64,000 nucleotides of DNA, from the NCBI GenBank assembly GCA_964187785.1, contig OZ076409.1, positions 38,566,001 to 38,630,000 of the forward strand, given 5' to 3'. The notes below the pieces were generated by a model that worked only from the letters and a program-made list of their open reading frames with translations, had not been told where the DNA came from and ran no database searches. Source of the stretch: Amphiscolops sp. MND2022 (Eukaryota). How positions within the stretch are numbered: the first letter of the stretch is position 1; each line of letters starts with the position of its first letter. Both the position numbers and the translations under genes were made by a program. Below are positions 7,444 to 55,622 of this stretch, piece by piece.

Positions 7444-8302
7444 TGTAACGGCTGCTTGATCACTTCAATTGACCAAGCTTTACGCCGCCCTGAATTCGGT
7501 GCTCGGCACTGCGGATCGTTGCCGTCCACTGCTTGCTTCTTAGATTAAAAGGACTGTATCTTGACTTAGTAGGATTCAATGATCCCGAATTGCACTTCTT
7601 CCTTGTCTCTTAACACGTCCAACTCTCCACAAGTTGAGAGTAACTAACTTAGTCGCCCTAAGTCTTTGGCGAAAAGTCGAAAAGAGGTGAAGAAATGAAT
7701 TGAGAATATATGTGGTCCTAAGACCCAACTTGAATACAGCTTTCCAATCAATTTTTTGCCTAACTAGTTATGGTATTCATATCGTTTACAATTATTCGGT
7801 AAATATGAGGTAAAATATGAAGTATAAATAAATGACATTTAAAGCATAAAATGAAGTTATTGGCTAAGTAAACAAAGAATGTGGTTGTTTTGGCATGTTG
7901 GTTAGGTGGGCTAGAAAGTATGTTTACACAATATAAATATCAATAATTTCAACAGAGTTACATTCTAATGTGGTCATAAGGGTAAATAATAAAGTTTACA
8001 TTTTTGGTTCAATGACCTTGAACACTACACATGTGAGGGGTAAAGGGGGTTATAATGGGTGGATGACCTTGAAACTTAACCGATGTGTTAGTGTTAGGTG
8101 CTTGCGTATGTGTACCAAGTTTCATGTCTCTAGGGTTATTAGTAGTCGAGAAAATCCCGACTGGGGGGGGGTTCGCCGATTTTGTGATGATCGACTTTTC
8201 TTCAAATTTTCATCTAAGTTTTTTAAAGTTTAAGTTTTGTTTCTCAACCAGCATGTTCTGTTCTAAATCGAATTTTTTGCCTGCTGATGACTGGCGCCAA
8301 CA
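7444..8302 (-). repeat. 3' LTR of BEL/Pao element 1
   Basis: Direct repeat of 30171-31013, with a few percent divergence by eye. The purine-rich tract gggagaaaaacagggccggcaa is adjacent on the - strand. Confidence 0.95.
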
Positions 8303-8798
8303 TTGCCGGCCCTGTTTTTCTCCCGAAAAACACTTTCGTAGAACATGGGTGCCAGTTTCACTACTGGTCTTTTGAGTTTTCCATCTTTTGTCACCACTGT
8401 CGCAGATCTAACTCTGCCGTCCCTTCCTTCTTGCCCTTCAAATACTATCGCCATCTTGTAGTTAGACCGCTTCACATTTTCATCCACGACCCAAACCAAA
8501 TCGTTGACTTTCAGCTGTCTCACGTCATCTTTGTTTCACTTATTACGCACATTCCACTCCGGCATATATTCTTTAGTCCATCTAGCTCAAATCATATCTG
8601 AATAAGCTTGCGACACTCGAAAAACTCGTCGCAAATCTGTGTAACGTTGAGCGTCTGGTAGGAATGGTGTGGCTAAATTAGCTCTTCCCATTAAAAAGTG
8701 GTTCGGTGTCAAAGCTTCCAAGTCATCAGGATCGTCACTAACACTAGTCAGTGGTCTAGCGTTCAACGTCTGTTCTACTAAACACATAGTTGTTATAA
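8263..8798 (-). pseudogene. C-terminal part of BEL/Pao element 1 integrase
   Basis: ITTMCLVEQTLNARPLT...LTPNHFL...GRDGRVRSATV continues the frame interrupted at 23948. Confidence 0.9.
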
Positions 8799-9000
8799 AG
8801 TAGTAGTGGAAATCCCGATACTGGCCAACAAAACGCCAAAAATTAAAAGTCCTCAAAACCATTGATTTTGAGGACTTTTTAGAAGACAAATCATCAAAAA
8901 CAGTGTTTTGCCATGAAGCAAAATTCATTAACCTCTATAGTTTAATGTCAACGTTGCAACCAGCGTTCAATGTGTAATGATAAAATTTTGCTGTATAACC

Positions 9001-9099
9001 AACGTTAATGCACAACCAACGTTATTGTACAACCAACGTTAATGTACAACCAGCGTTAATGTACAGCCAACGTTAATGTACAACCAACGTTAATGTACC
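9001..9099 (+). repeat. 17-bp tandem repeat in the TIR (aacgttaatgtacaacc, ~5.8 copies), mirrored in the right TIR
   Basis: Units start at 9001, 9018, 9035, 9052, 9069 and 9086. Confidence 0.9.
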
Positions 9100-9136
9100 G
9101 GCGCATACGTTATTCTTATATAACTCCAACTAACAT

Positions 9137-9397
9137 TGATTCGTCTCCCATAGCTTAGTGGTTATAGCATTGACTAAAGTTAAGGCTTCGGCCGGAGTGT
9201 TTGGGGTTCACTTCTATCCAACGTCCCCCAGTCTTTGTTACAACTTACATGCTATGGGAGAATAATCACCAATGGCACAGTTCTTAAAAAGGATAATCCC
9301 TGCTGTGGAAACTCTTAGTGGAACGGACTCCCGATGGGCTTTGAGTTTACCATAGGTATGCCAATACCAATGGCATGCCTATGGGTTTTGTATTTTT
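9137..9397 (+). ncRNA. Candidate structured Pol III (VA-like or tRNA-derived) RNA inside the TIR, with a second copy on the - strand in the right TIR
   Basis: A box TAGCTTAGTGG (9151-9161), near B box GGTTCACTTC (9205-9214), ggcUUCGgcc tetraloop (9184-9193), long stems and terminal T-runs. Confidence 0.4.
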
Positions 9398-9472
9398 ACC
9401 ACATGGGAAATAATTTTAGCCACGCACAGCTTCACACAACATTAATACACAACAATGAAAAATAACTAATAA

Positions 9473-9892
9473 ATGGCACAGCTTCACAATTACCTCTCAT
9501 TCAAAGACTTTGTTGAAAAATATGGATTAAAAAACGAAGCAACTTCCAATGTAAAAATAAAAGAAATACTTAATGAATTAAATATTCCATGTGGAATATA
9601 CATGAGAGATGATAAGTTTAACACTACCAGTGGTATAGTTAACTTACATCCCTCAGTGGGAACATATTGGGTTATGTTTACAAATCAAAATTATTTTGAT
9701 TCATATGGATGCCCACCCCCAACTAATATACTTAATCATAATAAAAATGGTATTTATTCAGAATATCAAATTCAGACCAACGACAGTTATTGCGCGGCGT
9801 ATTGTTTATACACACTGTATCTCACAAATAAAATTGGGTTCAAAAATGCAGTACTAAATTTATACTACCAAACTTTCAAACTTAACAAATGA
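9473..9892 (+). CDS. Adenain-like cysteine protease (PRO), catalytic His apparently replaced by Tyr
   Basis: IVNL...GTYW, YFDSYG, QIQ...YCAAYCL motifs. Confidence 0.9.
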   Translation: MAQLHNYLSFKDFVEKYGLKNEATSNVKIKEILNELNIPCGIYMRDDKFNTTSGIVNLHPSVGTYWVMFTNQNYFDSYGCPPPTNILNHNKNGIYSEYQIQTNDSYCAAYCLYTLYLTNKIGFKNAVLNLYYQTFKLNK

Positions 9893-10125
9893 AGAAAATT
9901 AATAATTATTCAACTCAATATAAAATTATCTCGCGCAGCTTTGCGACAGCTAACGCACAAAATTTCACGCACAGCTCCACAGAACAGCTTCACAATCAAA
10001 ATCAAAATCATGGAAAAAATACAACAATTTTGCGGAAGCTATCGCATAAGAAAACATTATCAAAAGATAGACAAGAATTTATAAATAACATTTCCGCTAG
10101 GGGATTCAAACATTTTAATCTATAA
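9889..10125 (+). CDS. Small basic hypothetical Polinton protein
   Basis: 78-aa ORF exactly filling the gap between the protease and penton genes. Confidence 0.5.
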   Translation: MKKINNYSTQYKIISRSFATANAQNFTHSSTEQLHNQNQNHGKNTTILRKLSHKKTLSKDRQEFINNISARGFKHFNL

Positions 10126-10128
10126 TAA

Positions 10129-11189
10129 ATGGATCTATCCACCTTCGTAACTTATGATAAAAAAGAATCTCTTCTTTTAAGTATTGCAAAATCCAATCAA
10201 GAAATTGTAGAAAATACTCATTCTAAACCACAAGAAACTCTAGAACTTAAAATGAATAAACAAAAAGAATCTTTCTCATTTGATGTTCCTCTCATTTTAA
10301 ATGAAAAATGGATGATGGGAGTAACAAGTTTAGAAGTATACAATACAGTTTATAATATCACTAACAGCAATAACAAACTACAGATTATTCTAAATGATCG
10401 ACAACTCGATGCACTTGAGTTTGACACGGGAGTGGTGCCAAATATAAAGAAGTTGTATGAAACTTATGATTTAGAAAATAATAAACTTTACTATGAATTT
10501 ATAGAAAAAGCTAATATATATTTACCTACTAGTTATAAAAAAAGAAGAAACTTCCGAAAAAAGATTTTGACTATTTAAAGCAAATGAAGAGCAACATTCC
10601 TATAACTATTCCAAACTTTGAAATTGAGAATGAGTTTATTGATATAAATTTAGTTCCAGGTGTATACGAGTTGATTGAAATAAATAACACCATAAAACAA
10701 ATAATTACTGATTCAGGTTATGAATTAGATGATAAGTCAAAATTCAAAAAAGATCTTACAGTTTTTAGTATTGATTTCAACATAATACCCGACACAAAAT
10801 CGATGAAATCAGTTTTAACAACCTCAAACCCTATTCATTTTAACTCCAAACTTAACAAAGTCCTGGGTTTTACACAACGTGATTACCCATCCGGAACTCA
10901 CACTTCAGAAAAACCAGTCATGATAACAACCACCGACAAAGTTCATCTGAAGTGCGACTGTGTAGATGGTTCAATTGTTAATGGTATACGAGAACAAATT
11001 TTATTTTCTTTCAATTTAAGCGCACCTCCCGGATATAAAATTATAAAAGAACCCACAACTGTTTTGTACAAATCAATTAACAAAACACGACTGGACACCA
11101 TTCAATTTTTCTTTGAGGACTCTAATCATGATTCAGTTGATTTCAACGGGGAGACACTCACCTTCACAATTCAAATTATTAAAATATGA
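10129..11189 (+). pseudogene. Minor capsid protein (penton), frameshifted near 10540-10580
   Basis: N-terminal FSFDVPLILNEKWMMGVTSLEVYNTVYNIT and C-terminal LKCDCVDGSIVNG...PPGYKI...VDFNGETLTF are Polinton penton-like, split over ORFs 10129-10578 and 10584-11189. Confidence 0.8.
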
Positions 11190-11256
11190 TGTTGGGCGAT
11201 AGCTTTCGCGATAGCTTTCACGAAGCTCCACAAAAATGATAATTTTTTTTCAATAA

Positions 11257-11733
11257 ATGAGTTATAATAAATTTATAAATAATTCATATTGTGTTGGTGG
11301 AAAACACTATTCTCCCACCACAAATATTCATGGAGAAATTACAAACACTGGGATACAGATGGGCAGGCCCGTACACACATTACGTGGCAACTGCATGATA
11401 TGTAACAGAAATAAGAGTCTAATTGTATCTGAACGAACAATAGATGGGGAAGGATTGGGAGACTTTTTCAAACATTTAGGTTCTGCAGCCAAAAATGTTG
11501 GAAAGAAAATACTCAATAATCCAGGCCGCGCACTAGAAATAGCAGCAAATATTGGAACTGCAGCAGCAAGTAAAAATCCACGAATAATTGCCGCAACTGC
11601 CCCTGACGTTATTAAATTTGTTCATCAAGGGAAGGGGTTATACAAAGCTGAAGGTTTGTCGAGTAAAGGCAGCAAAGCAGGCAGCAAAGCAAGTAAAGGG
11701 GGTAAAGGCCTGTATCTGGGGAAAATCCACTAG
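11257..11733 (+). CDS. Putative core or membrane-lytic protein (Cys-containing N-terminus, GxG cleavage-like sites, amphipathic helix)
   Basis: YCV...CMIC, IDGEG-LGDFFKHLGSAAKNVGKKIL, two GKGL, basic tail. Confidence 0.6.
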   Translation: MSYNKFINNSYCVGGKHYSPTTNIHGEITNTGIQMGRPVHTLRGNCMICNRNKSLIVSERTIDGEGLGDFFKHLGSAAKNVGKKILNNPGRALEIAANIGTAAASKNPRIIAATAPDVIKFVHQGKGLYKAEGLSSKGSKAGSKASKGGKGLYLGKIH

Positions 11734-11759
11734 TTAGATTCATTAAATAAATTTAATAA

Positions 11760-12824
11760 ATGTATTCAATTCACACCCGAGATGACTTGGAAAAATTAAA
11801 AAAATTACAAGAAACAAAATCTTCAGTACGCAAAGAAAGATTAAAAGAGAAACTAGGGGAGCAAGACTTTCATTATGACCTTGAAGAAGTTTTTGAACCT
11901 GTCACTACAAAACAGGTGGAATCAAATGAAAAACAAATACAAGCCATTGACAAACAAACCCAAGGGGTTACACAAGCAAATGAAAATCAGACAAGAGCAA
12001 TAGAACACAATAATAATATTCTTCGCGTAGCCATGCAAAATTCTTTTAAAGAAGGAATAAAACAATATAATGAAATTACAAATCATAATAATCAGCTTCT
12101 TACAAGTCTTGTTAATTCCAACAAGGTTGATTCTAGTATTGTAAAAACAGTTTCTAATTTACTTAATGACAAAAACAAAAGTCAATTTAGTTTAGAACCA
12201 ATTACGCAGAGCTTCGCACAAGACAATCCTAATTTATTCACAATTAATACCCATAACCCACAACAAGTACTAATTAAAGGTTCAACAATGGTTTTCGAGA
12301 ATGGGAATTCATATGATCTTAGTAACCCAGATCTTCAATATTTTATAACTAATACACAATTTGACAAACAAATAAATAACTGGGACTCAATTTATAACTT
12401 CTTAAATAATATGAAATATGATCTAAATTATGGAGATAAAAAATCAATCAGATATCAATTTATTAAAGAATTATACTCTCGCTATCAATTGCAGGGCTAC
12501 ACGCAAGGCTTCGCACAGGGCTACACACAAGCACATGATTTGCAGGGCTTCGCACAGGGCCAATCACAGGGCTTCACAGGAAGTGGATTAAATGGCGAAA
12601 GCTATCGCGAAAGCTATCGCGAATATTCACAACAGTACATTTTCCTCCCATCTGACCCAGACGAATTAGTGGATCAATTGAAACTACTTTATTTTGAAAA
12701 AGTTGGAGGAAATGATAGTTTTTTGATTAATGAACAAATTATTGCAATTATAGACAAGTTATTGGAGTATGAATGCATATCACCTTCTCAACACCAAAAT
12801 ATACGAAGCAACTTGATCTCCTAA
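11760..12824 (+). CDS. Conserved Polinton hypothetical (core-like) protein
   Basis: 354 aa, coiled-coil N-terminus, GSGL, and the C-terminal FLPSDPDELVDQLKLL...GGN...IIAIIDKLLE motif recurrent in Polintons. Confidence 0.7.
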   Translation: MYSIHTRDDLEKLKKLQETKSSVRKERLKEKLGEQDFHYDLEEVFEPVTTKQVESNEKQIQAIDKQTQGVTQANENQTRAIEHNNNILRVAMQNSFKEGIKQYNEITNHNNQLLTSLVNSNKVDSSIVKTVSNLLNDKNKSQFSLEPITQSFAQDNPNLFTINTHNPQQVLIKGSTMVFENGNSYDLSNPDLQYFITNTQFDKQINNWDSIYNFLNNMKYDLNYGDKKSIRYQFIKELYSRYQLQGYTQGFAQGYTQAHDLQGFAQGQSQGFTGSGLNGESYRESYREYSQQYIFLPSDPDELVDQLKLLYFEKVGGNDSFLINEQIIAIIDKLLEYECISPSQHQNIRSNLIS

Positions 12825-12840
12825 TCTCCTCACGAAGTCC

Positions 12841-13950
12841 CTAATTACTTAAAGGATCAGTTTGTGGATTGAAGATCTTGTAATTTGGATTAGATTCATT
12901 ACAAATCCTGTACCTACTCCCATTTTTATCTTCCAATCTGTTTATTAAAAGGTAGTTGAATTTTTCGTTCCATGCTTCTCTGCACAAACTTTTGAATTCC
13001 TCATAAGACATATCAAAACCTGATATGTCCCTATGAATATGTTCTACATCTTTCAGTGTTTGTTGAAATAAAATTATTATATTCGAATTGTTCCTAACTG
13101 TCTTTTTTGGTGCATCAAAATAACTCTGACATAAATAATAAACATCACAAGATTTGTGTCTTCCCCTAGTAAAAAATGGATCAATCAATTTCTGGTTGGA
13201 GTTCAACATATCATCAAATACTACACAACACCCCCTATACTCTTCCAAATCCCCCACATTTTCTTCCACTTCTATTCCTTGAATATAAAGCTCCACATCC
13301 TCATATTGTTCTGGACTCCTTGTAATGATACGAATTTGTTTCTCTGGATCTTCCAAACGAATCAATCGTAATTTATTCAACAACAAATGAGTCTTACCAC
13401 AAAATGATGGGCCAACTATTAATGTTCTATTAGTTTCGTTCACACCACTATTAGCATTAGCTCCCGCGTTAGCTCCCGCATTATCATCATTAGCGATAGC
13501 TTTCGCGATAGCTTTCGCGTTAGCTTCCGCATTATTATCATTATTATTATCATCATTATTATTATTATGTGTGCGGTAGCTATTGCGGTAGCTATCGCGA
13601 AGCTGTGTGGGAAGCAAGTCACCCCCGGTATTAATATTTGTGCGAAGCTGTGCAGTTGTGTGCGAAGCTGCGAATGCTCCTGCGGCAGCTTTCGCGCGAT
13701 TATAATGCTGATGCAAGTGTTGCTTCTTGATGTGTGACCTTAAATGACTTTTATTTAATTCCTTATTACAAAATTCACACCTCACCTTTTTATTAAAACA
13801 CACTTTGCATGAATTGTACATTTTACCATTTTTGTATGAATAAAAAGTATTACAATTCTTCATAATATTACATTCCTTACATCTTTTTTTATTACTACAA
13901 TCATCACACAAACTTTTTTCACTACTTTTATTACAAATTAAGCAATTCAT
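12841..13950 (-). CDS. A32/FtsK-like packaging ATPase 1 with N-terminal zinc fingers
   Basis: Walker A GPSFCGKT, Walker B VVFDDM, RGRH, LCQSY. N-terminal CxxC pairs and C2H2 (CEFC...HIKKQH). Confidence 0.92.
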   Translation of the reverse strand: MNCLICNKSSEKSLCDDCSNKKRCKECNIMKNCNTFYSYKNGKMYNSCKVCFNKKVRCEFCNKELNKSHLRSHIKKQHLHQHYNRAKAAAGAFAASHTTAQLRTNINTGGDLLPTQLRDSYRNSYRTHNNNNDDNNNDNNAEANAKAIAKAIANDDNAGANAGANANSGVNETNRTLIVGPSFCGKTHLLLNKLRLIRLEDPEKQIRIITRSPEQYEDVELYIQGIEVEENVGDLEEYRGCCVVFDDMLNSNQKLIDPFFTRGRHKSCDVYYLCQSYFDAPKKTVRNNSNIIILFQQTLKDVEHIHRDISGFDMSYEEFKSLCREAWNEKFNYLLINRLEDKNGSRYRICNESNPNYKIFNPQTDPLSN

Positions 13951-13959
13951 TTATTTAGT

Positions 13960-14250
13960 AAAAAATCACTAAATTCATCTAAGAATCACTCAGTATCACT
14001 ATGTAATCACTATGTAATCACTATGTAGTCACTAAGCAAATTTCACTAAATCACTAAGGTTTCACTAAGTGTCTGTAAGGGTATTTATTTCTCTAAGATT
14101 AAAAATTATAGTGAAATTTAGTGAAAATAAAAGCTCTTAGTGAAACCTTAGTGATTCTTAGAGGAATTTAGAGAAATTTAGAGATCACTAAGAATCACTA
14201 AATAATCACTAAATAATCACTAATCACTAAATAATCACTAAATAATCACT
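13960..14250. repeat. Internal TCACTAA direct/inverted repeat array
   Basis: More than 15 (A)TCACTA units. Perfect 21-bp inverted repeat at 14049-14069 and 14136-14156. Confidence 0.9.
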
Positions 14251-15490
14251 AAACATTATTTAGCTTATTTTTAGTAAAGTTTTTTGCATGATCATAAATT
14301 AACTTCTTGAAGTCCTCTTTAACTGAATCACTAATTAGTGGTTTTTGCATACGCTCAACGTAGTTGTCTATTTTGGATTCATTTACTTTAATATTATTTT
14401 GTTTGCAATATGCTACATAATAATAAGCTATGTTGAGTGGTGTTATTTCAATTGTCTGGTCGGACATTTCCTCTAAGAAAATTTTGAGTTTGTTGTATTC
14501 ATCACCAGTGAAAAAGTAACTTTCATAAGCAACAAGTTGTTCTGGACCCCATTTACTTCGTTTGCTCGAATCATAAGTTAAGTTGTACTTGTTGTTTAAT
14601 ACCTTGTATTTCTGACTCCTTGTGTCAAATTCAATTATACCATATTCTAACAGATCGCGGTAGTATTTCCAATTAAACCCGTCTTTGATCGCGGAAGCTA
14701 ACGCATAAGTTTGTACAATCGACTCGAAGAAGTTATCTGGGTTATTAATTGTTAAGTATATTTTGAAGCAATTTTCCCTCACGATTGGAAGAACATCCTT
14801 TGCATAGTGAGCAAGGTATATCACTTGAATCCCCAAGTGTCTACCAAATCGGAAAAGGTCTTCTACTTTTGTTTTAGGACTTTTGTATGCACCTGCATCA
14901 TCCAGTACAACAATTTTATTAGTAAGTGATTCAATACTAACTTTCTCCAACTGCAGTAGTGGTACAAAATTTTGAGAGGGAAACTCACGTTCATCTCGCC
15001 CGAAAACTACGTAATTTCTTTGGCGTGAGCTATCGCGAAGCTCTGCAACTTGTGCCAAATAATGCTTTAAAGAACTTGTCTTCCCAGAGCCACTACTACC
15101 ATAAATTATGAAATGCGCGTTGCAATGAGAATTGTTATGTGAGTTGTTGTTTTGCGTAGCTTCGCGTGTATCCTGGGGGGCTTCGCGTTCCTGGTTTGTC
15201 AGATGAGAGTATTTGAACCCTGCAAATTGTAGTAGTTTTTTATAAATTGTTTTAAACTGTCTAGGACGAATATAATTCCAATATATTACAACAATAATAC
15301 CTATAAATATAATTAAACATACAATAAACATAGGATTTGTGATTACTTTATAAATTCGTGTTTTCTGATACCAATTGGCCGCGCCAGCTCCCGCGCCAGC
15401 TCCCGCGCCACCTCCCGCGCTAGCTTTCACGCCGGCTCCTTCACCTTGATAATTATTTCTATAGCTCTGCAAGCAATAATCATTATTCAG
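14249..15490 (-). CDS. A32/FtsK-like ATPase 2 with N-terminal transmembrane helix (start codon appears as CTG at 15490)
   Basis: Walker A GSSGSGKT, Walker B VVLDDA, FGRH. Hydrophobic MFIVCLIIFIGIIVVIYW segment. Confidence 0.85.
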   Translation of the reverse strand: MNNDYCLQSYRNNYQGEGAGVKASAGGGAGAGAGAGAANWYQKTRIYKVITNPMFIVCLIIFIGIIVVIYWNYIRPRQFKTIYKKLLQFAGFKYSHLTNQEREAPQDTREATQNNNSHNNSHCNAHFIIYGSSGSGKTSSLKHYLAQVAELRDSSRQRNYVVFGRDEREFPSQNFVPLLQLEKVSIESLTNKIVVLDDAGAYKSPKTKVEDLFRFGRHLGIQVIYLAHYAKDVLPIVRENCFKIYLTINNPDNFFESIVQTYALASAIKDGFNWKYYRDLLEYGIIEFDTRSQKYKVLNNKYNLTYDSSKRSKWGPEQLVAYESYFFTGDEYNKLKIFLEEMSDQTIEITPLNIAYYYVAYCKQNNIKVNESKIDNYVERMQKPLISDSVKEDFKKLIYDHAKNFTKNKLNNV

Positions 15491-15513
15491 TTATTTATAA
15501 AAAATTGTTATAA

Positions 15514-16386
15514 ATGAACATGAATCAAAAGGCGGAGCTTTGCAAAGAGCAGATTGCTAAAGAAATATTCTCTCCTGTAATCAAGAAGTCTCAAAGAATT
15601 CAAATACAAACTCACTATAAAGATGAATGTTGGAGTATCGATTTAATTGATCGCTCAAACTTAAGCAAATACAACAAAAACTACAAGTTTATTTTCACAA
15701 TAATTGACATTCATACCAAATATGCATGGGCGATTCCCCTCAAAGATAAATCAGGAAAAAGTACAACTACTGCTTTAAAAAGTCTCATTGAAAAAGAAAA
15801 GAGAAAACCACACAAAATTTGGAGTGATAGAGGTAAAGAATTTTACAACACAACATTTTTACACTATTTAAAAGAGCAAAACATTCAAATTTATTCAACC
15901 CATTCGGATTTGAAGGCTGTTTTTGTTGAACGTTTCAATAGAACACTTCTGGACTTAATCAAAGAACCAATGTATATTGAGGGTAAAGGTAACTGGTTGA
16001 ATCACCTTGATGCTGCTTTGGATAAGTATAATAATAGGGTGCATGGTACAACAAAAATGACACCTTTTGAAGCGAATAAAAAACCAATAGATCCACCTAC
16101 CTTTGTTAATAAACTGAAACAACCCAAATTCCAAGTGGGAGATTTTGTAAGAGTTCCTGACAAAAGGAACATTTATTCAAAAGGTTATACAACAAATTGG
16201 AATAGAGAACTTTTTAAAATACACAGCATCAACAAAACAAACCCAGTAACATACACTCTAAATGATGAAAATGGAGAAATTATTCAAGGAAAATACTATG
16301 AACAAGAACTTTTAGGAAGCATATTCGACTTTGACTCTAACAACAAAACGTTAGAAAGTATGAATATTTTCCACAAGTTTGAGTAA
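15514..16386 (+). CDS. Retroviral-like (rve) DDE integrase of the Polinton
   Basis: WSIDLID, WSDRGKEF, VERFNRT, KGYTTNW. Intact ORF with no C-terminal chromodomain visible. Confidence 0.95.
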   Translation: MNMNQKAELCKEQIAKEIFSPVIKKSQRIQIQTHYKDECWSIDLIDRSNLSKYNKNYKFIFTIIDIHTKYAWAIPLKDKSGKSTTTALKSLIEKEKRKPHKIWSDRGKEFYNTTFLHYLKEQNIQIYSTHSDLKAVFVERFNRTLLDLIKEPMYIEGKGNWLNHLDAALDKYNNRVHGTTKMTPFEANKKPIDPPTFVNKLKQPKFQVGDFVRVPDKRNIYSKGYTTNWNRELFKIHSINKTNPVTYTLNDENGEIIQGKYYEQELLGSIFDFDSNNKTLESMNIFHKFE

Positions 16387-16419
16387 TTTTCCACGTTTCA
16401 CAATAATTTTCTATTATAA

Positions 16420-17655
16420 ATGAACACAGATATGTTTTCTTTAAAAAATAAATACACTCTTGAAAAACCTTTTCATGAAATTGATTTCATAAAGTATAGT
16501 CCAAGTAGTTTGGCGACAATTAACAATACAAACTCGAATACTACAATTAGTTTCCCAAGAGAAGATGCATACATATGTTTACAAAATAGTTTCATAAGTC
16601 CAGAATTTGAAGTACTTAAAAACAACGACTCAAGATACACCAACGGTGATGAAATTGGATTGGTTAACTTTGGGCCAATCTCTCTATTTAGTGAAGCCAA
16701 ATTAACAACTTCTAGTGGGAAACACCTAGAAAAAGTTGACAATTTGCACTTGATTTCTTTAATGTATAAACTTCTAACAAGCACTAGTCAAACTTCCCAG
16801 TTATTGTATGGGTTTGAAGAAAGCGAGACTATCAGAAGACAAGAACTAACAAACAACAAAAATGAGAAAGGAACCTTTTTTGTGAGAATAAAACTAAAAG
16901 ACTTGTTTGGATTTGCTGATCAAGAAAAAATAACTTACGGTTTGGGCTACACTCTTACACTCAAACGGAACACTAACAATGACGCCATTTTAAGAAGTGT
17001 TGGAGTGGATGCTGCAAAAGTGGTTATTAAAGACATTGGTTGGTATATCCCACACTATGTTCCCAGTATCGAAAACCAACAACTTGTCATGGACCAAATT
17101 CTAAATAAAGATACAACCGAATTGAGTTACACGGAACGAATTATTTTTAGAAAAGATGTTAACACGAATTCGAATTGGACATTTGAATTAGGCAGCGCAG
17201 GCGAGTCCTGTCCAGCTTTTGTGATTGTTGGATTTCAAGCTAGAAATAAAATTGATTCTCAGGTTCATGATAATGCAGTGTTTGACCGGTTGCCAATTAG
17301 TAATGCTGTTTGTAAAATAGGATCAGAAAAATATCCCGATGATGGGATAGAATGTGATTACGACCGCGACAAATATGATCAAGCATATAGTGAAATTGAA
17401 AACTTTTATCACTTGAATAGTGAAACTAACTTACTCAACCCATTTATTGATTTGAACAAATTCAGAACAAATTATAATTTTTATGTATTTGACCTCAGCA
17501 AACAAAGGGATATCATTGCGAGTCAACCAATCCGTTTAGAATTTAAATTTAATGCTGCCATTGATGTAGCAGATTATATAGCTTATGCACTTGTATTAAC
17601 CCCAAAACTAATAAGTATTAGTAGTGATGGGCAAAGGCATTTTGACCTCATTTGA
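16420..17655 (+). CDS. Major capsid protein (double jelly roll)
   Basis: 411-aa beta-rich ORF with LFSEAKL...G..LE, CPAFVIVGFQ, KYP, YVFDLSKQ and IRLEFKF, characteristic of Polinton MCP. Confidence 0.88.
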   Translation: MNTDMFSLKNKYTLEKPFHEIDFIKYSPSSLATINNTNSNTTISFPREDAYICLQNSFISPEFEVLKNNDSRYTNGDEIGLVNFGPISLFSEAKLTTSSGKHLEKVDNLHLISLMYKLLTSTSQTSQLLYGFEESETIRRQELTNNKNEKGTFFVRIKLKDLFGFADQEKITYGLGYTLTLKRNTNNDAILRSVGVDAAKVVIKDIGWYIPHYVPSIENQQLVMDQILNKDTTELSYTERIIFRKDVNTNSNWTFELGSAGESCPAFVIVGFQARNKIDSQVHDNAVFDRLPISNAVCKIGSEKYPDDGIECDYDRDKYDQAYSEIENFYHLNSETNLLNPFIDLNKFRTNYNFYVFDLSKQRDIIASQPIRLEFKFNAAIDVADYIAYALVLTPKLISISSDGQRHFDLI

Positions 17656-17689
17656 TTTGATATGAGAGGAATGATGAATCATAGATTAA

Positions 17690-17790
17690 TAATTATAAAT
17701 GATGATAAATGATAATAAATGATAATGCTAATATTATAATAAATGATGATAATAAATGATGATAATAAATGATATTTCTAATTATAAAAG
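17690..17790. repeat. (aataaatgatgat)n low-complexity repeat between the convergent MCP and pPolB genes
   Basis: Visible tandem array containing several AATAAA. Confidence 0.75.
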
Positions 17791-17857
17791 ATGTGTGTGA
17801 AAGCTATCGCGAAAGCTATCGCGAAGCTGTGCGTCACGCCAGTTATCACGATAGTTA

Positions 17858-20800
17858 TCACAATAAATGGGCCCGATCACTTATCAGATTTAAAAGCTGT
17901 TGATGATTCAATTTTTCTTTCAGAGTCCAAATGTTATAGTATATTTCTTCATCTGGGAGGGGCTTTGCAGGGCACCCATCATCCGTTTCACTTGTGCTCT
18001 GTTCGGTGTAATACAAGCCAACTAATTTTATACAAAGTATACAAGGACAATCACCTTTTTGTGTGTGTTTATCCCATGATAAACTTTGTATTGGATTCAA
18101 GTACATACGCTTGTCATCAAAAGGATTCAAAGCTAGCTTATCTTGTTTCTGAACAGTTAAGTTGTGAGCATTACTTCTAATAGCATAATTAGTTGCAGTT
18201 GTTGTTTCAGAGTTAAATAATGAATTTATAAATTGTGAATAAATTGGTGTATGTTGTATTGCTTTTTGTTTTGACTTTTGCGTTAGCTTTTGCGTTAGCT
18301 TTTGCGTTGCTTTCTGAACTGTGTTTCCATAGCTAAAAGAATATGATTTAGATCTCAAAGCTACGAAGTTGTATAATTCAATAATTGGTGATGTTTCTAT
18401 TTTCATTTTACCTATAACTTTCTTGTTGATTGAGTTGTACAACTCATGACTTGGGTCGAGCTCGCTGAAATCAAAATCATCTTTGAAGTATTCCAAATCA
18501 TTTATAAGGTCTCCAGTTTTAATACTTAGAATGAATGAGTCTGTATCCATGTAATGCAGTTTAATTTTATTGTTATATTATGGTTGTAATTTGTGATAAT
18601 AAAACTCATACATTAACAATTTACTCAGTTCTAAAACACTAAACCCCAAGTATACTGGTTTATCAAAAAGTACTTTTTCCTTATCAAACTTGTAAACACT
18701 GAATTCGGAGTAATGATAAGTGATTCCTTTAAAGCTTAACTTCGATTGTCTTTTTATTATTTGATCAATGTTGGTGTGAGGGATAAACTCTAAATTAGTC
18801 CGGTCTCTAACATTTTCCATAGTCTTACCAAAGAAAGCGTTGTTCATTACTTTGTACAAATCCTTCTCAAAGTTTGTTTTTGCTTTGGTGCGTTTTTGTG
18901 TGTTATGATTAACGTATTTTTCTAACCAAAGTGATTGTTTGAACCGGTAGATTGTGTGAACCTTTATTACTTTCATCCCGATCTGGGTGTAAAACTTGAA
19001 CATCCTGTAGTGCATCATATAATTATATTTATTTGTTAGGTCACACATAAGTTTCTCGGTTGGTTTGTAGTTGGATTGTTTTACACTGTTCATGTATTCT
19101 GAGAAAAGATTTGTTCGGCTTTTGTTTGATGAGGACAAAGTGGAAAGTTTTCGGTTTTTTCTTTAATTTCTGCTGGATATTCTAAATCACATTCTATAAA
19201 GTATCCAAATTCATTGTCATCTGGTGTATTCAAAATGTCTTCTGTAATTTCATTCATCAGTGCAGAATCATATTGCATAGCTTCGTGACAGTTCTGCGCG
19301 AAGCTACGCATCTTTTTAAAGTCTCCAGTAGGAAGGTATTGACTCATTGCCCATCCATACAAGTTATTTGCATCAATGTACAGTAATTTAGTATTTTCAT
19401 TTGACTCAATGAATCTGGGACCCATAACACTTGAAATTCCTCCACGTATATTGTTTTCTAAAAGTAATAATAATTCTTTACATTTTATATAATCTAATTT
19501 AATTTTAGTAAGTTTTAAACCAGCTTTCCATGTATAACCAGGTAAAGAGTAACTGTACAAAGGATTGATGCCGTATTCAAGTGTAGACTTCTCAACAAAG
19601 TTTTCGAACACGTCAGTGAGTTGTAGTACATCCATTTTTAAGTACAATTCTGTTAGTTCTTGTGCTGTTGTAATGTTGTAAGTGTCAATCAATTGTTGGG
19701 TTCTTTTTATATCATCCTCACATGGGTGAGATTGTGTTAATGTTGACCAATAGTCCTCTTTTGTTAGATTTAGTGGTTCATGCAGGTTGTTAAGATTGAA
19801 TTTTTCGTATGGATAAGCTAGTTTTTTCTTAAATAAATCATCAGTTAGGCCCTCATTTTGCATATAAGGAAAATCATTCAATGATGTTATGAGTTTTTGT
19901 AGACTACTACTCAAAAATCTGTATGAATCTAAAAACCTTAAACAACCTACTTGCACACTTACATAATTTTCCATTGACTTTGGTATAATATTTATTGGTA
20001 ACTTTAGATTATAAGCTGATGTTAAGAGTTCTTCAAAAATTAAATGACAATCATAACCACTGAAATTATGGAAAAATATAGGAACAAACGAACTTGACTT
20101 TTTTTTACAATTTAAATTACATTTGTTGTGGGCCGCTCCTCGGTACTTGCCTGTAAGGTGATCATGATCTCGAACGTTATCCTCACCGTCTAACTTTCGT
20201 TCGCAAAGCCAACACACTTTGGATTGTTGAAATGATTGGTGTTCTTCAGGAGTTATTTCAAGAGGTAAATTTGTTCAAAATAGTTACTAGCAATGTTTTC
20301 TAGAGTCAACATTTCATTTACAAACCATGTTACACACGATTCACCAAAGTATGAGCTGTAATTATTACCAAATGGTGAAATCATATAAAATCCTACTGCA
20401 ATTGGAATTTGTTTAAATAATACTTTGGGGTCGTCTGTTGGTTGATTAATGCATTCGAAATCTGCATATACTCTCATTGGTATGGGAACTTTCATATGAT
20501 AATCTTCGAACTTTAAGTGATCCTTCCAACTGAATGAGATATTAGTTGGTTGTTGTTTTTGACAACGGTCAATGTGTTGACTGAGAATATCCTCAGAACT
20601 AAATGCAGTTAGGCATCTTCTACACACCCATTTCTTGTGCGAATCCTTATTTATTAGACAATGCAATTTTGTCATTAAGCAATAGTGATTTTGATATAAT
20701 AATAAATCTATTTGTGGTTGATCATAGTTTGTGTTGGTATGGATTGGTGTTAAAACTGTTTTTGTGAGTTCAAATACATTTACGTTTAAATTATTTAAGT

Positions 20801-21722
20801 TTTCGAACTTGGGAAAATCTTTAATTTTCATGGGGAATTCTAAACCATTTAAAATGAGTTTGTTCGTGTGCATTGAATAATTTGATGTTCTATTTTTATG
20901 ATCCTCAACGGGAAAAAGGTGTGCTAGGATGCACCACAAAAAGCAAAATTGATCATCATTTTTTATATTTATAATTGATTTATTATTCTTATATTTTTCT
21001 GGCAACTCAACCCATGAAGAAACTTGAATATCATTGACTTTATAAATTTCTAATATAACATTGACAATACCGTTTAACACAAAACCTGATCCTTCTAATT
21101 GTTCATCATCTAATTTCTGCATTAATATGTTGTGAATATTTGGGTTTGCGCCGAAGGCAATCTGCGTGTGATTGTAATTAAAATCTGATTTAACCCATTT
21201 GTGAAATACAATTTCTTCTCCACTAACTATTTTTGAAAACTTAGCTAAATAACTCAATTGGAACTTGTATCGGGGAAAGTAATTTTTATTTAGTAAATCA
21301 TTAATCTGTTCTTCAAGATGATTTGTTGGATTTACTCTCAGTTTAATGTATGTTTTTTCATTCACAATTATTTCTACGCCAGTTCCTACGCCAGTTCCTA
21401 CTCCATGTAGTGTATTACCAAATGCGTTTTTTGTAGCATTGTTTTGACTTCTTAACGTGTGAATTTCACTTTGGAAATGTCTTGAATTACTTATATATTT
21501 GCCACAATCTTCACACCAATTTTGTGTAGCTTCGCGTTGTTGTTTGGTTTTGTTTTTATGTTCATCTGAATTTAGATGATTAGACTTGTCAGACAATGGC
21601 ATAAATGTATTACATTTTTTACAATAATATTGATTTAATTTTTGTAAATGTTTTATTGATTTTAGATGATCAGACTTGTAAGCTTTTTTATAATCAGAAT
21701 TACAAATACTGCAGTTCTCCAT
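17858..21722 (-). pseudogene. Protein-primed DNA polymerase B with N-terminal zinc fingers and an endonuclease VII-like insert, disrupted by two frameshifts and one stop
   Basis: YADFE, HNFSGYD, DANNLYG, KxxxNAFFGK, YMDTDS, KSY, RDHDHLTGKYRGAAHNKCN. Breaks near 20270, near 19115 and TAA at 18578-18580. Confidence 0.95.
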
Positions 21723-21819
21723 TTATTTATAATAAAATTATGAATTTAATAGCAGCATATTTTTCAATTATTAGTGTTAAGTTTTATTTTATTTTTTGTG
21801 TTAATATTGAATAAATTAA

Positions 21820-22509
21820 TTATAAAAAATTGTGTGGTTTAAGTGGTAATGTTGGTGGTGTGTGTGAAGCTGTGTTAGCTGTCGCGTTAGCTGTCGTGTG
21901 TGAAGCTACTTGTGATTTTGTATGCGAAGCTGTGCGCGAAGCTGTGCGTGATTTTGTGTGAATTTCCTGTGAAGCTACCTGATAATTTTCAAATTGATTC
22001 ACAAATCGGCGATATTCTTTTTCATCTATATGATTATCTTTTAGGCTAGTAACATAAAGTTGTCTAAAGTTGTCAAGAGTCTTCTGAATAATAGTGTACT
22101 TAAGTTTATAATTTTGCTCCTTTTTCTTCAAATAACTGGAACAAATCTTAACAAGAATACCAGTTGTACAACCAACTCCTGCAGCGATTGGAACAACTAT
22201 AATACCCACACCAGTAATACTTAGTGAGATTGATGCTGAAGTGGTTCCAATCACTATAATGCCATCGAGGGAGTTAATTAGGTTATTTATTAGCTTGTAT
22301 TTGTTGTATTTCTGTTTGTATTTCTTTTCTTCCATTTCATAATATTTCATCATTAGACTAATGTTTTGAATAGAATTATTGAAGCTATTTACTTTTTGTA
22401 ATTCGTTTTGCAACGCGCTTTGCAATCGCTTATTTATCATTGATTCTACATCATATGGTGCGGGGGGAGAGGCCGTTGGGGTCAGGGAGGGATAGAGTTT
22501 TTGTTCCAT
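21820..22509 (-). CDS. Polinton membrane protein (coiled coil plus hydrophobic hairpin)
   Basis: GIIVIGTTSASISLSITGVGIIVVPIAAGVG hydrophobic segment, SLKDNHIDEKEY, N-terminal LYPSL. Confidence 0.75.
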   Translation of the reverse strand: MEQKLYPSLTPTASPPAPYDVESMINKRLQSALQNELQKVNSFNNSIQNISLMMKYYEMEEKKYKQKYNKYKLINNLINSLDGIIVIGTTSASISLSITGVGIIVVPIAAGVGCTTGILVKICSSYLKKKEQNYKLKYTIIQKTLDNFRQLYVTSLKDNHIDEKEYRRFVNQFENYQVASQEIHTKSRTASRTASHTKSQVASHTTANATANTASHTPPTLPLKPHNFL

Positions 22510-22512
22510 TTA

Positions 22513-23328
22513 TTAATCATATAAAATGAAATTTATTTCCGTTGGTGTTAATTTCATTCTGTGTTTCATATCAACAAGGTCTTTAAAATTGTCTTTTTTC
22601 AATGTCTCCAGAATTGATTGTCTGGTAGAATATTCTAAATCAGACAGATAATATTCACCATCTGAAGTAGGTATTGTTTTTCCATACTTTTCCTTTAAAT
22701 AGGATTCACTAAAAGTTAGATAATTTGCAAAAGCTTGATTTTTATTGGGAAAGGAATCGAACAAACCTTTGTCATAAAGCAGTTGAATTATGTTGTTAGT
22801 TATAGTAATTTTATTTTGATCTAGGCTATTAAGAATATTATTTATTTCATCTTCATTTAAAATCATTCCAGCTTGACCCACCTGACTCATAAACTTTAAA
22901 TTACGGACTGTTAACATTTCAAAACTATTGTTGTGTATTAAATTTAGTACCTCATTTACTAAAGCAGTTCTTTGTTCGGCGAAAGATTTTTTCATACTTT
23001 GTTCTAATTTATTTATGGTTTTTGAAAGGTCTGAAAACTGGGAATAAATATCATTCATTACCTTTGTGTTTAATAAAACATCTTGAATTTCCTGTGGGTC
23101 TAGTGTTTGATGCGCCTTCGCGATAGCTTTCGCGTCTAGCATTTTTTCTTCTACTTGATTTTCTATGTCATTTTCAAAATCGCGTTGCAAATCTTCTTTC
23201 AATTTGGAATGTGTTATTTGGGCTAGTTTTTCTTGACTTTTTATCATATCTTTTAGCTCCTGATATTCCCTCAGTTTTAGCTGTTCACTAGAATAACCAA
23301 ACTTATGAAGAGACGGAGTTTCATACAT
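22513..23328 (-). CDS. Hypothetical helical protein
   Basis: 271-aa intact ORF with the same ATAAATG start context as the other Polinton genes. Confidence 0.7.
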   Translation of the reverse strand: MYETPSLHKFGYSSEQLKLREYQELKDMIKSQEKLAQITHSKLKEDLQRDFENDIENQVEEKMLDAKAIAKAHQTLDPQEIQDVLLNTKVMNDIYSQFSDLSKTINKLEQSMKKSFAEQRTALVNEVLNLIHNNSFEMLTVRNLKFMSQVGQAGMILNEDEINNILNSLDQNKITITNNIIQLLYDKGLFDSFPNKNQAFANYLTFSESYLKEKYGKTIPTSDGEYYLSDLEYSTRQSILETLKKDNFKDLVDMKHRMKLTPTEINFILYD

Positions 23329-23348
23329 TTATTAAGATGAAAAAGTTG

Positions 23349-23947
23349 AAAAATACAAAACCCATAGGCATGCCATTGGTATTGGCATACCTATGGTAAA
23401 CTCAAAGCCCATCGGGAGTCCGTTCCACTAAGAGTTTCCACAGCAGGGATTATCCTTTTTAAGAACTGTGCCATTGGTGATTATTCTCCCATAGCATGTA
23501 AGTTGTAACAAAGACTGGGGGACGTTGGATAGAAGTGAACCCCAAACACTCCGGCCGAAGCCTTAACTTTAGTCAATGCTATAACCACTAAGCTATGGGA
23601 GACGAATCAATGTTAGTTGGAGTTATATAAGAATAACGTATGCGCCGGTACATTAACGTTGGTTGTACATTAACGTTGGCTGTACATTAACGCTGGTTGT
23701 ACATTAACGTTGGTTGTACATTAACGTTGGTTGTGCATTAACGTTGGTTATACAGCAAAATTTTATTATTACACATTGAACGCTGGTTGCAACGTTGACA
23801 TTAAACTATAGAGGTTAGTGAATTTTGCTTCATGGCAAAACACTGTTTTTGATGATTTGTCTTCTAAAAAGTCCTCAAAATCCATGGTTTTGAGGACTTT
23901 TAATTTTTGGCGTTTTGTTGGCCAGTATCGGGATTTCCACTACCACT
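23349..23947 (-). repeat. Right terminal inverted repeat of the Polinton (599 bp)
   Basis: Reverse complement of 8799-9397. Confidence 0.95.
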
Positions 23948-26900
23948 TTTTAAGGACGTCGTCGGTCAAGGATCGCTCAACCAATACAGCTATCATTGCT
24001 TTTTTTTAACTTCGGACTAATCGTTCCCAGATTCCTCCAAAATGAGGGGCTCCAGGGGGGTTGATTTTCCACTTCATGTCTTTTTGAGCTAAAGACTTCT
24101 CAATGGCTGACTGATCCCATGCATTTATACAATCTCTCATTTCTTTTGCTGCACCCACGAAGTTTGTCCCATTGTTGCTCAAAATTTTAGCAGGTTTACC
24201 TGTTCGGGCAATAAACCGTGTAATAGCAGTTAGGCAGGTCTCTGCTTCCAAGGAAGGAACAACTTCAATATGTACTGCTCTAGTCGTCAAACATGTGAAG
24301 AGACAACACCATCTCTTCATAGTCTTACGCTTAATTTTCACTTCAAAGGGACCAAAATAGTCAACTCCAGTGTTAGTAAAGGGGAATACTCGTTCCTGCA
24401 ATCTCTCTCGTGGTAAATCAGCCATAATTGGTTGAGACACTCCAGCTCGTTGCTTTCTACATTTAACACATTTCGCTTTGACGTTCCTCAAAGCGTTTCG
24501 TAATCCAATAATCCAGTATTCTTGCCTCAGAACACTTCTGACGTATTCTGTGCTTTCATGAAAATTCGCTCGATGAGCATCTTCAATCAACTTGATGACT
24601 ACATAGTGCTTTGCTGACTACAAGATCGGATGTTTGACCTCATAACTTGATCTTGAATGCTGCAGTCGGCCATGTAGTCGCAGCAATCCATATTCGTCCA
24701 GAAACGGCGATAACTTATTCAACTGCTCTGAAGCCGACAACGGCTGCCCTTTGTAGATCTTCTCGTAGGCATCATGAAAACTTTCCTTCTGACAACGCTT
24801 CAGAGCTGCCAGTTTTGCCGCATTGAGTTCTTCAACTGTCAGAATTCCTTCGGATTTATTTTCCTCCATCTATGGCAGTATGACAGCACTCGAATTATTT
24901 TCTTGAAAGAACTAAATCTTTCCCATTCGAATGGTGGTTCCATTACACCAGCTTCCATGACTGGTTCAGGGTCTTCTCGAATGCTAAATTGCAACCTTCC
25001 AGGCGCCTTAGGCCTGGCGTCTTCTGTCTCGGTGAGCCCGCTGGCCCTGTGAGCCAATCACTTTCCTTTAGGGCTTCAACTGTCATTCCTCGAATTCCAT
25101 TGTCAGCAGGATTCAGTTTTCCTTCAACATGCCGCCATTGATCGATAGTTGAACTTTCGAGAATTTCAGCAACGCGGTTTGCCACAAAGACCGGTTGTTT
25201 GTTGTTACTTGCGTGGAGCCATTGTAGGACCGTCGTTGAATCTGTCCAATGTGCAATTTGGTCTACTTCATTATCATGTTCTTCCAAAATATGCTCTCGC
25301 AGTCTTACTCCAAAAACTGCTGCCTGCATCTCCAACTTAGCCACTGTCATGTTTCGTATTGGAGCTACTCTACATTTGCCAATCACAAAGGCCACTTCGC
25401 CATTTTATTACTTTCTCAAATAGGCAACCATACACATTGCTTCCAACGAAGCGTCTGAGAAGATATGTAGATCTACTTTGTTCACACCTGACTCAAAATA
25501 TGTTCTTTTGAGGGCCATTTTGTTCTCATGTATCATATCTGATGCCCATTTCTTGAATTCATGTCGGTTTTCTTCAGTCAGTTTTTTATCCCACGACTGT
25601 CCGTTCTCCTTCCATATTGTTTTCAGTAGCAGTCGCATTCTTATGGTGAAATGAGACACTATTCCCAAAGGGTCGAATACAGCTGAAACATGGGATAACA
25701 CCGCTCTCTGCGTTATCTTCACCGGCATCTCCTTCTGCATGCCTCTGCAGACTTCCAGATTATCTGCGTCATCGTTCCATTGCAGTCCCAAGTTGGCTCC
25801 GCTTCAAAGGTTTTACTAGAGGACGGTGACTTGTCTGCTTCGTCAGTAGACATCATAGTCTGTTCGCAGTTGGTAATCCATTCTGTCAAGTGAAAGCCTC
25901 CCCTTGCCAACATCGCTCTCAATAATTTGTAGATTTCAATGGCCTGCTCCGCGCTGGGAACAGACTTGACAAAGTCATCCATATAGAAGTTTCGCGTTAT
26001 CAGTTTAGTAATTTGTGGGGACTCGTGTGCGTTATCTTTGGCAACTTGTTGCAGAGCAAAATTAGCGCAAGTTGGCGAGCTTTTGGCTCCGAAGATATGT
26101 CTTACATACTAATACACCTTAATGGGTTCATTTGGATTGTCTCTCCATAGAAATCTCAACACTTTACAATCTTTTGGTGGTACTTTCACTTGTAGGAACA
26201 TCGCCTCAATGTCAGCAGTGATGGCGATCTTTTGTTCTCTAAACCTGAAGATTATTCCAATCAGATTCTGTAGTAGGTCCGGCCCTGTCAAGAGGTTATC
26301 GTTCAAGGAAATTCCACGGAATTTGGAGGCTGCGTTGCACACTCGCCTCACTTTTCCCGGTTGGTTTGGATTTTCTACTGGGTGATGTGGAACATACCAC
26401 TGTCTTTCCAATTTTGTAGCTTCTCATTCTTCCTGCTTTTTCAACATCTACTTTGATAGAGTCTTGATAGAAAATCTTCAACTCCGGTTTGTTTTCAAGT
26501 CTATACTCCAACGATTTCATTTGGCTCAATGCCGACGAATAATTGTTCGGCAAGAAGGGGTCATTTCTTTTCCAGAGGAGTCCAACTTCGTATCTTTCAC
26601 CATCAAACTTCGTGGTTTGTTCTAGCATCTGCAACGCTTTCTCGTCGTCCTTGGACCTTCCAGATAAATCGCAGCGGGATGCGTTGGACTCAATGTCCCA
26701 CCAAGTTTTATTCTGTTCTGCCAGCACATCATCTTCAGAAGCTGTTACGCAAGATGCAGTCATCTGCATAGCCTTTTGCTGTGGAAGTGGTCCACAGAGA
26801 GTCCATCCAAGTTTCGTTTTCACTGCCCAAGACTCATCATTCGTGCAGTTTTTATATTCTACAGGCCGATGTATATGGTAGCAGTTTTGTCCCAATATCA

Positions 26901-30170: not shown

Positions 30171-31013
30171 TGTAACGGCTGCTTGATCACTTCAATTGAC
30201 CAAGCTTTACGCCGCCCTGAATTCGGTGCTCGGCACTGCGGATCGTTGCCGACCACTGCTTGCTTCTTAGATTAAAAGGACTGTATCTTGACTTAGTAGG
30301 ATCCAATGATCCCGAATTGCACTTCTTCCTTGTCTCTTAACACGTCCAACTCTCCACAAGTTGAGAGTAACTAAGTCTTTGGGCGAAAAGTCGAAAAGAG
30401 GTTAAGAAATGAATTGAGAAGATGTGTGGTCCTAAGACCCAACTTGAATACAGCTTTCCAATCAATTTTTTGCCAAACTAGTTTAGGTATACATATCGTT
30501 TACAATTATTCGGTAAATATGAGTGAAATATGAAGTATAAATTAATGACATTTAAAGCATAAAATGAAGTTATTGTCTAAGTAAACAAAGAATGTGGTGG
30601 TTTTGGCATGTTGGTTAGGTGGGCTAGAAAGTATGTTTACACAATGTAAATGTCAATAATTTCAACAGAGTTACATTCTAATGTGGTCATAAGGGTAAAT
30701 AAGAAAGTTTACATTTTTGCTTCAATGACCTTGAACACTACACATGTGAGGGGTTAATGGGGTTATATTGGGTGGATGACCTTGAAACTTAGCCGGTGTG
30801 TTCGTGTTAGGTGCTTGCGTATGTGTACCAAGTTTCATGTCTCTAGGGTTATTAGTAGTCGAGAAAATCCCGACTGGGGGGGGGGGTTCGCCGATTTTGT
30901 GATGATCGACTTTTCTTCAAATTTTCATCTAAGTTTTTTAAAGTTTAAGTTTTGTTTCTCAACCAGCATGTTCTAAATCGAGTTTCTTCGCCTGCTGATG
31001 ACTGGCGCCAACA
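30171..31013 (-). repeat. 5' LTR of BEL/Pao element 1
   Basis: Direct repeat of 7444-8302, followed on the - strand by the PBS. Confidence 0.95.
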
Positions 31014-49298: not shown

Positions 49299-49464
49299 TT
49301 TATTGGTCCTTAACGACCCGGACACTGAAGTTCCAGGACACGAAACTATCTACGCAATTTTTACTGAAAGACGAAGCCTATCAAATATTACAGATATTGC
49401 AAATTCGGCAAAATTTGAAAGTCCTTTCATCGAAATTATTAGTTGACGACATTTTAATATCAAA

Positions 49465-55510: not shown

Positions 55511-55622
55511 ATCTCAAACACGTTGGAGCATTGATACATTTTATGGAACTATTGCTGAGTGATCAACAGTTATTAAAGAATCTTCCTATTTGATTTACTG
55601 GGCGAAATCAAGGCGGCCGGTA

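Follow-up and report, generated by a model that had tools for sequence, protein, structure and literature searches.

The window analysed here is a stretch of 64,000 nucleotides of the forward strand of contig OZ076409.1 (positions 38,566,001 to 38,630,000) from Amphiscolops sp. MND2022, which carries a Polinton/Maverick element of 15,149 bp (8799–23947, 33% GC), delimited by its mapped ends and its gene content. All eleven conserved genes of this Polinton have the tetramer ATAA directly before their first codon, most often as the heptamer ATAAATG. The element is bounded by terminal inverted repeats of about 600 nt each that are 99% complementary, the left one (8799–9397, forward strand) with an AGT-repeat end, a 17-nt tandem array, and a 14-bp stem at 8845–8879, and the right one at 23349–23947 on the reverse strand. 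Outside them lies a target-site duplication, whose left copy (8793–8798, forward strand) matches 23948–23953 at five of six bases. These ends, together with a protein-primed DNA polymerase (pPolB), an rve integrase, a protease, an A32-type ATPase, and a double jelly-roll capsid protein, identify the element as a Polinton/Maverick. It is inserted into the integrase gene of a retrotransposon (BEL/Pao type, judging by DUF1759). Searches with three of its proteins returned 938, 271, and 328 matches, the best 120 of each at 69–100% identity, and the window Polinton is one among hundreds of related copies.

On the forward strand, the motif opens the maturation protease gene (9473–9892, motif at 9469–9475), which is the first gene inside the left repeat and has nothing upstream; a gene at 10129–11189 (motif at 10125–10131), which from its position we take to encode a probable minor capsid protein, and which is split into two frames near 10580; a DUF5679-like gene of 158 codons (11257–11733, motif at 11253–11259), weakly similar to the DUF5679/PLA2 gene of the related element L001 (E 3e-5); a conserved gene (11760–12824, motif at 11756–11762), whose family model matches a DUF8207 protein of a Cotesia bracovirus; the rve integrase gene (15514–16386, motif at 15510–15516); and the major capsid gene (16420–17655, motif at 16416–16422; PF21738, E 3e-23). 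On the reverse strand, it opens the genes of packaging ATPase 1 (13950–12841, motif at 13948–13954), of pPolB (21722–17858, motif at 21720–21726), broken into pieces across three frames, of a conserved protein with a hydrophobic stretch (22509–21820, motif at 22507–22513), and of a lineage-specific protein of 271 amino acids (23328–22513, motif at 23326–23332), the first gene inside the right repeat, again with nothing upstream. A preliminary description of this DNA had named these ten sites, and all ten are present on the strands it gave; its total has to be raised by one, as it overlooked packaging ATPase 2 (15490–14249, reverse strand), where ATAA precedes a first codon that is not ATG in this copy (15488–15494). 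The context at this eleventh site, TTATAAATAA, is as at the other starts, and the same start position is used by 106 of the best 120 sister proteins listed. For the capsid gene, the best 120 sister proteins are called at the same start in 7 cases, at +4 in 44, and at +13 in 46; gene callers thus put most sister capsid starts a few codons downstream, and the sole basis for the start given here is the sequence of the window itself. An open reading frame (ORF) of 78 codons at 9889, with neither the motif nor a credible Pfam match, was not counted as a gene.

At each of the ten ATG sites, the TAA closes the ATG's own reading frame, which can therefore open no earlier than that ATG. ATAA precedes 10/10 ATG starts but, of the 265 sense-strand ATGs inside these genes, only 1 (Fisher p 2e-17), and against the local base composition the excess at starts has a p of about 2e-14 after correction for 256 tetramers. 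Outside the element, it precedes 10 of 1589 ATGs. These internal-ATG and local-composition tests rule out a chance origin of the start motif. Eleven further ATAAATG copies inside the element are not gene starts, and seven of them, opening no long frame, lie in an AT-rich repeat region and the end of the polymerase gene (17695–17869, forward strand). The comparison with host genes called for in the preliminary description was made in part, namely with the retroelement ORFs of the window, where the motif stands before none of the 28 listed flanking ORFs of at least 100 amino acids.

The motif is not confined to this copy. Relatives were collected by capsid alignment, which gave L001 together with 80 metagenome loci out of at least 580; the identity between the capsids of these relatives and that of the window is only about 25%. 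The relatives' starts were placed by protein alignment, not by the motif. The 200 usable start rows were reduced to 152 non-redundant starts in 11 gene families by discarding those of the integrase, a single internal duplicate, and contexts that were nearly identical. The general form T-A(2+)-(N)-ATG is found at 116 of these 152 starts (98 as T-A(2–7)-ATG and 18 with one extra base), whereas only 48 of the 819 in-frame ATGs inside the genes match it. In its strict TAA-ATG version, the motif occupies 16 of the 152, and is element-wide in the window Polinton, in L091 (8/10 genes), in L111 and L112 (5 genes each), and in 26 loci from a few records (31/42 starts); L109, the closest relative, has it at the integrase. 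A quick version of the capsid tree, with long branches, shows only that the strict-form elements are not neighbours. The number of A residues is a property of the element, with 66% of its variance lying between 16 elements (permutation p 0.0002). As run length changes together in all genes of an element, it suggests a reader acting in trans, although the effect rests on the strict elements. The ATAAATG-type start is a real, lineage-wide signal, very probably an initiator, which apparently has not been described; no description of promoters in animal Polintons was found in the accessible literature (subscription papers lying outside it), including the available parts of PMC8502044, PMC8363768, 10.64898/2026.10.13.758929, and 10.1101/2024.03.23.586382.

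Conserved design is also visible further upstream. When the 116 motif-bearing starts of the relatives are aligned on the T, an A peak lies at −21 to −15 and a T peak at −14 to −9, followed by a spacer containing G and C, while a TCT at −17 to −15 occurs in a minority. In the window, positions −14 to −7 are T-rich (49 T and 5 G or C in 88 nt), and T stands at −10 in 7 of 11 starts. The median gene spacing in the relatives, 29 nt, equals the length of such a promoter unit. Vaccinia promoters, in the accessible parts of the papers cited here and below, carry TAAAT(G) over the start codon, with T at the tenth base upstream of late genes and an AT-rich core 15–19 nt upstream of intermediate genes (PMC11980589). 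The initiator overlaps the start codon in this way at all ten ATG starts of the window, and a T-rich (late) or A-rich (intermediate) core 10–19 nt upstream is present, as compared by description rather than by matrix. The starts of seven contigs resembling polinton-like viruses (PLVs) are similarly AT-rich, with a looser motif.

The other capsid class of animal Polintons served as a control. An integrase scan yielded 34 loci with 70 non-redundant starts, a count that retains at least 4 rows from genes foreign to the elements; two earlier motif scans had yielded PLVs, giant-virus contigs, the hybrid L091, and chance matches. In this sister class, the motif is found at 10/70 starts (p 1e-18) and ATAA-ATG at none, the median A+T content at −30 to −1 is 60% vs 87% in the relatives of the window Polinton, and a purine stands at −3 in 60/70 starts. 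Its genes are tight or overlapping, and some elements have their own TBP and TFIIB-like genes. With this gene packing and these factor genes, and with the gene ends described below, the sister class behaves like genes of host RNA polymerase II (Pol II). One further locus, L108, whose polymerase is related and which carries a PLA2 gene but no capsid match, places TATA 30–34 nt before TCAG/CAGT initiators, so that a Pol II design looks different from the motif. The comparison with other Polinton families that the preliminary description proposed thus separates relatives with a PF21738 capsid, which have the motif, from the sister capsid class, in which it is rare, and since L108 also lacks it, the motif is a feature of a sub-lineage and not of all Polintons.

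Gene ends differ between the same groups. In the sister class, AATAAA lies near 31/70 stops vs 14.6 ± 2.9 in shuffled sequence, and the splice-donor motif GTRAG is depleted, on the sense strand only (44 vs 60.4 expected). The relatives show neither enrichment of AATAAA (50/141 stops vs 45.4 ± 4.8) nor depletion of GTRAG (206 vs 187 expected). Perfect stems of at least 9 bp follow 16/143 of the relatives' stops vs 1.7 ± 1.2 after shuffling, compared with 9/22 stops in giant-virus contigs, 0/23 in the window retroelements, and none in the sister class. Strong folds stand at 5/7 convergent ends of the relatives, some as one hairpin for both genes, and at 7/121 tandem ends. In the window, a hairpin lies just 3' of the polymerase stop (17770–17880, reverse strand), is made of a dispersed 12-nt repeat, and has a z of −3.5, with 0/200 shuffles as stable. 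A universal hairpin rule was rejected, as hairpins follow a minority of stops. A T6 run follows 15/98 tandem stops in the relatives, and poly-T was not seen as a rule; TTTTTNT is depleted on both strands and is, therefore, uninformative.

On this basis, ATAAATG would form the initiator part of a compact promoter, roughly 30 nt long and present at each gene of the lineage, that runs from an A-tract and a T-tract through a short spacer to T-A(n)-ATG; transcription would begin within the A residues that abut the start codon. The RNA polymerase reading this promoter would most likely be of nucleocytovirus type and brought in by a large DNA virus infecting the same cell, much as mavirus relies on its giant virus's late promoter, and in strict TAAATG elements, slippage on the three A residues may give a 5' poly(A) leader and hence a translatable message. 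Judging from sequence comparison, we put the probability that a helper-supplied polymerase of this type reads a promoter joined directly to the start codon at roughly 0.55. That the motif is a transcription initiator at all is very probable, its presence on 11 of 11 genes, terminal and head-to-head genes included, counting in this direction; that the helper is pox-like in particular is rather doubtful. The element-wide initiator with very short leaders proposed in the preliminary description is, accordingly, supported by its occurrence on non-homologous genes and across the clade, by the poxvirus-like spacing of the tracts, and by its absence from the sister class. Dependence on a helper virus, also proposed there, stands as the best reading, reached by inference only. 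The label poxvirus-late-like is exact for this element and has to be loosened for most relatives, which have three to six A residues, often behind TATA, and so fit the initiators of yeast plasmids, asfarviruses, or iridoviruses as well.

The chief competitor, which we consider unlikely though worth keeping in view, is host Pol II acting on AT-rich minimal promoters, with TBP on the A-tract, a start at the T-A step, leaders of 2–8 nt, and an initiator AATAAA that also provides the upstream gene with its poly(A) signal. Several observations favour it and weigh against a helper polymerase: 9/11 window start sites read AATAAA, which also stands in the last 12 nt of 36/152 relatives' starts, with TATAAA in 49/152; four AATAAA copies follow the capsid stop of the window (within 17695–17869); AATAAA lies near 6/11 window stops vs 3.1 ± 1.3 after shuffling, an excess that is not diagnostic, as it also appears in PLVs (31/57 vs 20.5) and giant-virus genes (14/22 vs 10.2); and a related element, L108, shows the use of Pol II, its leaders being about 4–18 nt long. 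Hundreds of chromosomal copies would suit an autonomous nuclear element, and ordinary RNA-seq has recorded expression of coral polintoviruses whose class is not stated (PMC11131425, accessible part). To these points are added the weak sides of the data themselves, namely that hairpins follow only 11% of the relatives' stops vs 9/22 in giant viruses (paired mean test p 0.46), that perfect stems end 0/11 window genes, that the concordance of A-run length is not significant without three strict elements (p 0.07), and that the control is narrow, with 27 of 34 loci from one record, although the ORFs outside it, of which 4/30 match, agree with the rest. Pol II, nevertheless, depends on a set TATA spacing, and a 2-nt leader is scanned poorly. 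The spacing is wrong in 38 of 45 upstream TATAWA copies, only seven being far enough from the ATG; TATA about 30 nt ahead of an upstream start is found at 7/152 relatives' starts and 1/11 window genes, where it lies at −33 or further; and TCAKT occurs at 4/152. The motif, moreover, also marks genes that have nothing ahead of them (9473, 23328, 15514, and 15490), AATAAA is missing from −40 to +90 of five window stops, three convergent ends included, and from all seven convergent ends in the relatives, and 37 copies within the window coding strands are not depleted; the need for a poly(A) signal as sole cause of the motif was rejected. Trans-splicing was also ruled out, as no YAG acceptor lies within 20 nt upstream of any of the 11 window starts. 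The T at −3, the lack of a splice acceptor, and the wrong TATA spacing together disfavour ordinary host initiation in the window.

Far less probable is a signal for translation alone, as an A-rich invertebrate Kozak context or as stop-start coupling on polycistronic messages, a possibility raised in the preliminary description and disfavoured for this element. The ordinary Kozak base, A at −3, is present in 129/152 relatives' starts, a count that also tells against the helper reading, and every window start has the TAA stop in frame. All 11 window genes, however, have T at −3, the conserved design reaches 25–28 nt upstream, and the sister class keeps its −3 purine without the motif. Stop-start coupling was rejected, as the upstream stop usually lies elsewhere (median gap 29 nt, with 11/113 gaps of at most 3 nt) and an A run varying from 2 to 6 does not keep the stop in frame. 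Just as improbable, or slightly more so, is an unrecognised initiation factor or polymerase of the element's own, such as the 271-aa or the DUF8207 protein. The sister class, with its TBP and TFIIB-like proteins, sets a precedent, the motif is concordant across each element, and the 271-aa protein has no family assignment. Against this, a Pfam scan of 19 window ORFs turned up neither an RNA polymerase nor a TBP or TFIIB family, in agreement with the preliminary description, which had recognised no RNA polymerase, and 55 further proteins scanned gave none either; the DUF8207 protein model matches no transcription protein, and the 271-aa gene was not found in the relatives examined, which keep the motif. 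Atlas and PDB searches gave no usable match for either protein, the 271-aa model (predicted local distance difference test score 49) being too poor to search.

A wider reading, which we hold tentatively and at somewhat less than even odds, is that a widespread lineage of animal Polintons consists of integrated virophages with nucleocytovirus post-replicative promoters tuned to each helper (strict TAAATG pox-like, TATA-A(n)-ATG asfar- or irido-like), while the sister capsid class, along with some insect-type elements, would rely on host Pol II. This bears on how animal Polintons are expressed and on whether their virions form unaided or with a helper; Polinton virions had not been observed according to the accessible part of bioRxiv 10.64898/2026.06.19.733378, and a virophage-like role for vertebrate Mavericks has been proposed, in the part of that work available, on host-range grounds only (Barreat and Katzourakis, PMC8097293). 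If this wider reading is true, the start context would serve to predict large DNA viruses of invertebrates that are still to be discovered, as well as what triggers Polinton virions. The promoter signature sets one lineage apart from a Pol II-like sister class and could be scored across public animal genomes.

Several other features were recorded. Within the window Polinton, the two A32-type ATPase genes stand in tandem (12841–15490), the first with a cysteine-rich N-terminus and the second with a hydrophobic N-terminal stretch, and the 300-nt spacer between them (13960–14260) contains TTAGTGA-type repeats and their inverse in a strong fold (z −7.7). The starts of ATPase 2 and the integrase share a near-palindromic divergent spacer of 23 nt (15491–15513). 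The 12-nt dispersed repeat, with 10 core matches inside the element and 1 outside, lies at 11185–11222, 12584–12624, 13482–13539, 17786–17825, and 23120, in tandem inside frames (AKAI-type runs) and 3' of stops. Long direct repeats belong to the interrupted retrotransposon (7444–8259 and 30171–30974) and to further nested retroelements (48729–62299). Among the relatives, L001 (1–16929) is an apparently complete element among viral contigs, with matching ends and a 12-bp hairpin within both terminal repeats; L091 joins a PF21738 capsid module to the other polymerase class; and cargo genes include DUF2738 and matrixin-like peptidase genes with motif-type starts in L033 (6926–7576) and L034 (1866–2660), and a gene with an F5/8 type C domain in L082 (5444–6124). 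Many other-class Polintons with TBP and TFIIB-like genes (L128–L163, e.g., L143 8021–9389) come from a record labelled as a bacterial metagenome-assembled genome, which is probably eukaryotic DNA, and L152, L153, and L155 have two capsid-like genes. Scans of viral contigs by single protein or close alignment gave no match to the window Polinton, nor did the phage collection.

Among known systems, the vaccinia intermediate and late promoters (PMC11980589, PMC5294985) are closest in layout, with TAAAT over the start codon, T-rich sequence near −10, an A-rich core that lies 15–21 nt upstream in the relatives, and a bipartite arrangement. Unlike vaccinia, the Polinton is an integrated 15-kb element without an RNA polymerase, whose genes all use one motif, even those of the DNA polymerase and the integrase, and its relatives carry two to six A residues. 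Slippage at TAAAT or TAAAN is documented for vaccinia and for yeast elements (PMC6211774). The yeast pGKL plasmids (Sykora 2018, PMC6211774) share a TAAAN initiator, a protein-primed linear genome, and stem-loops near stop codons, but have their own RNA polymerase and capping enzyme, which are not found among the window ORFs, and an upstream ATNTGA. The TATA-A(n)-ATG relatives fit the late promoters of African swine fever virus (PMC7163114), with a TA(+1)TA initiator and AT-rich late leaders of median 9 nt, and invertebrate iridescent virus 6 (PMC5923455), with an AAAAT motif, 3' hairpins, and no poly(A) signals; unlike the window Polinton, the former ends transcripts at poly-T, and neither uses strict TAAATG (PMC7163114, PMC5923455).

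Sharing of helper promoters is established for protist virophages (bioRxiv 10.1101/2025.10.09.676808, PMC5294985), and its mimicry in animal Polintons would be a new form, if the helper reading holds. Mavirus, the endogenous mavirus-like elements (EMALEs), and virophages resemble the window Polinton as integrating elements with pPolB, an rve integrase, no RNA polymerase, and an AT-rich motif before genes, while the Polinton has an animal host, a Polinton capsid, and TAAATG rather than TCTA. The entomopoxvirus-associated PLVs AHEV_PLV1 and CBEV_PLV1 (Barth 2024, PMC11296320) belong to the mavpol2 capsid clade, with PF21738 as top HHpred match (86 and 90%, supplement S2); unlike the window Polinton, they were found in occlusion bodies and have divergent capsids and other integration genes, and the accessible part of PMC11296320 contains no analysis of their promoters. 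In class, the window Polinton, for which a beta/group 1 label was withdrawn, is like the alpha adintoviruses or group 2 (mavpol2) elements (PMC8502044, bioRxiv 10.64898/2026.06.19.733378) in its terminal repeats, 6-bp duplication, pPolB, rve integrase, protease, A32 ATPase, and PF21738 capsid. PLA2 occurs in relatives (L001 and L082), the window gene at 11257 being a weak homolog without a PLA2 match. The window Polinton is unlike them in its two A32 ATPases and apparently in a polymerase that misses PF03175, for which a Pfam scan gave no match in the window pieces, L001, L069, or L082, and which the related polymerase of L108 matches at 8e-30.

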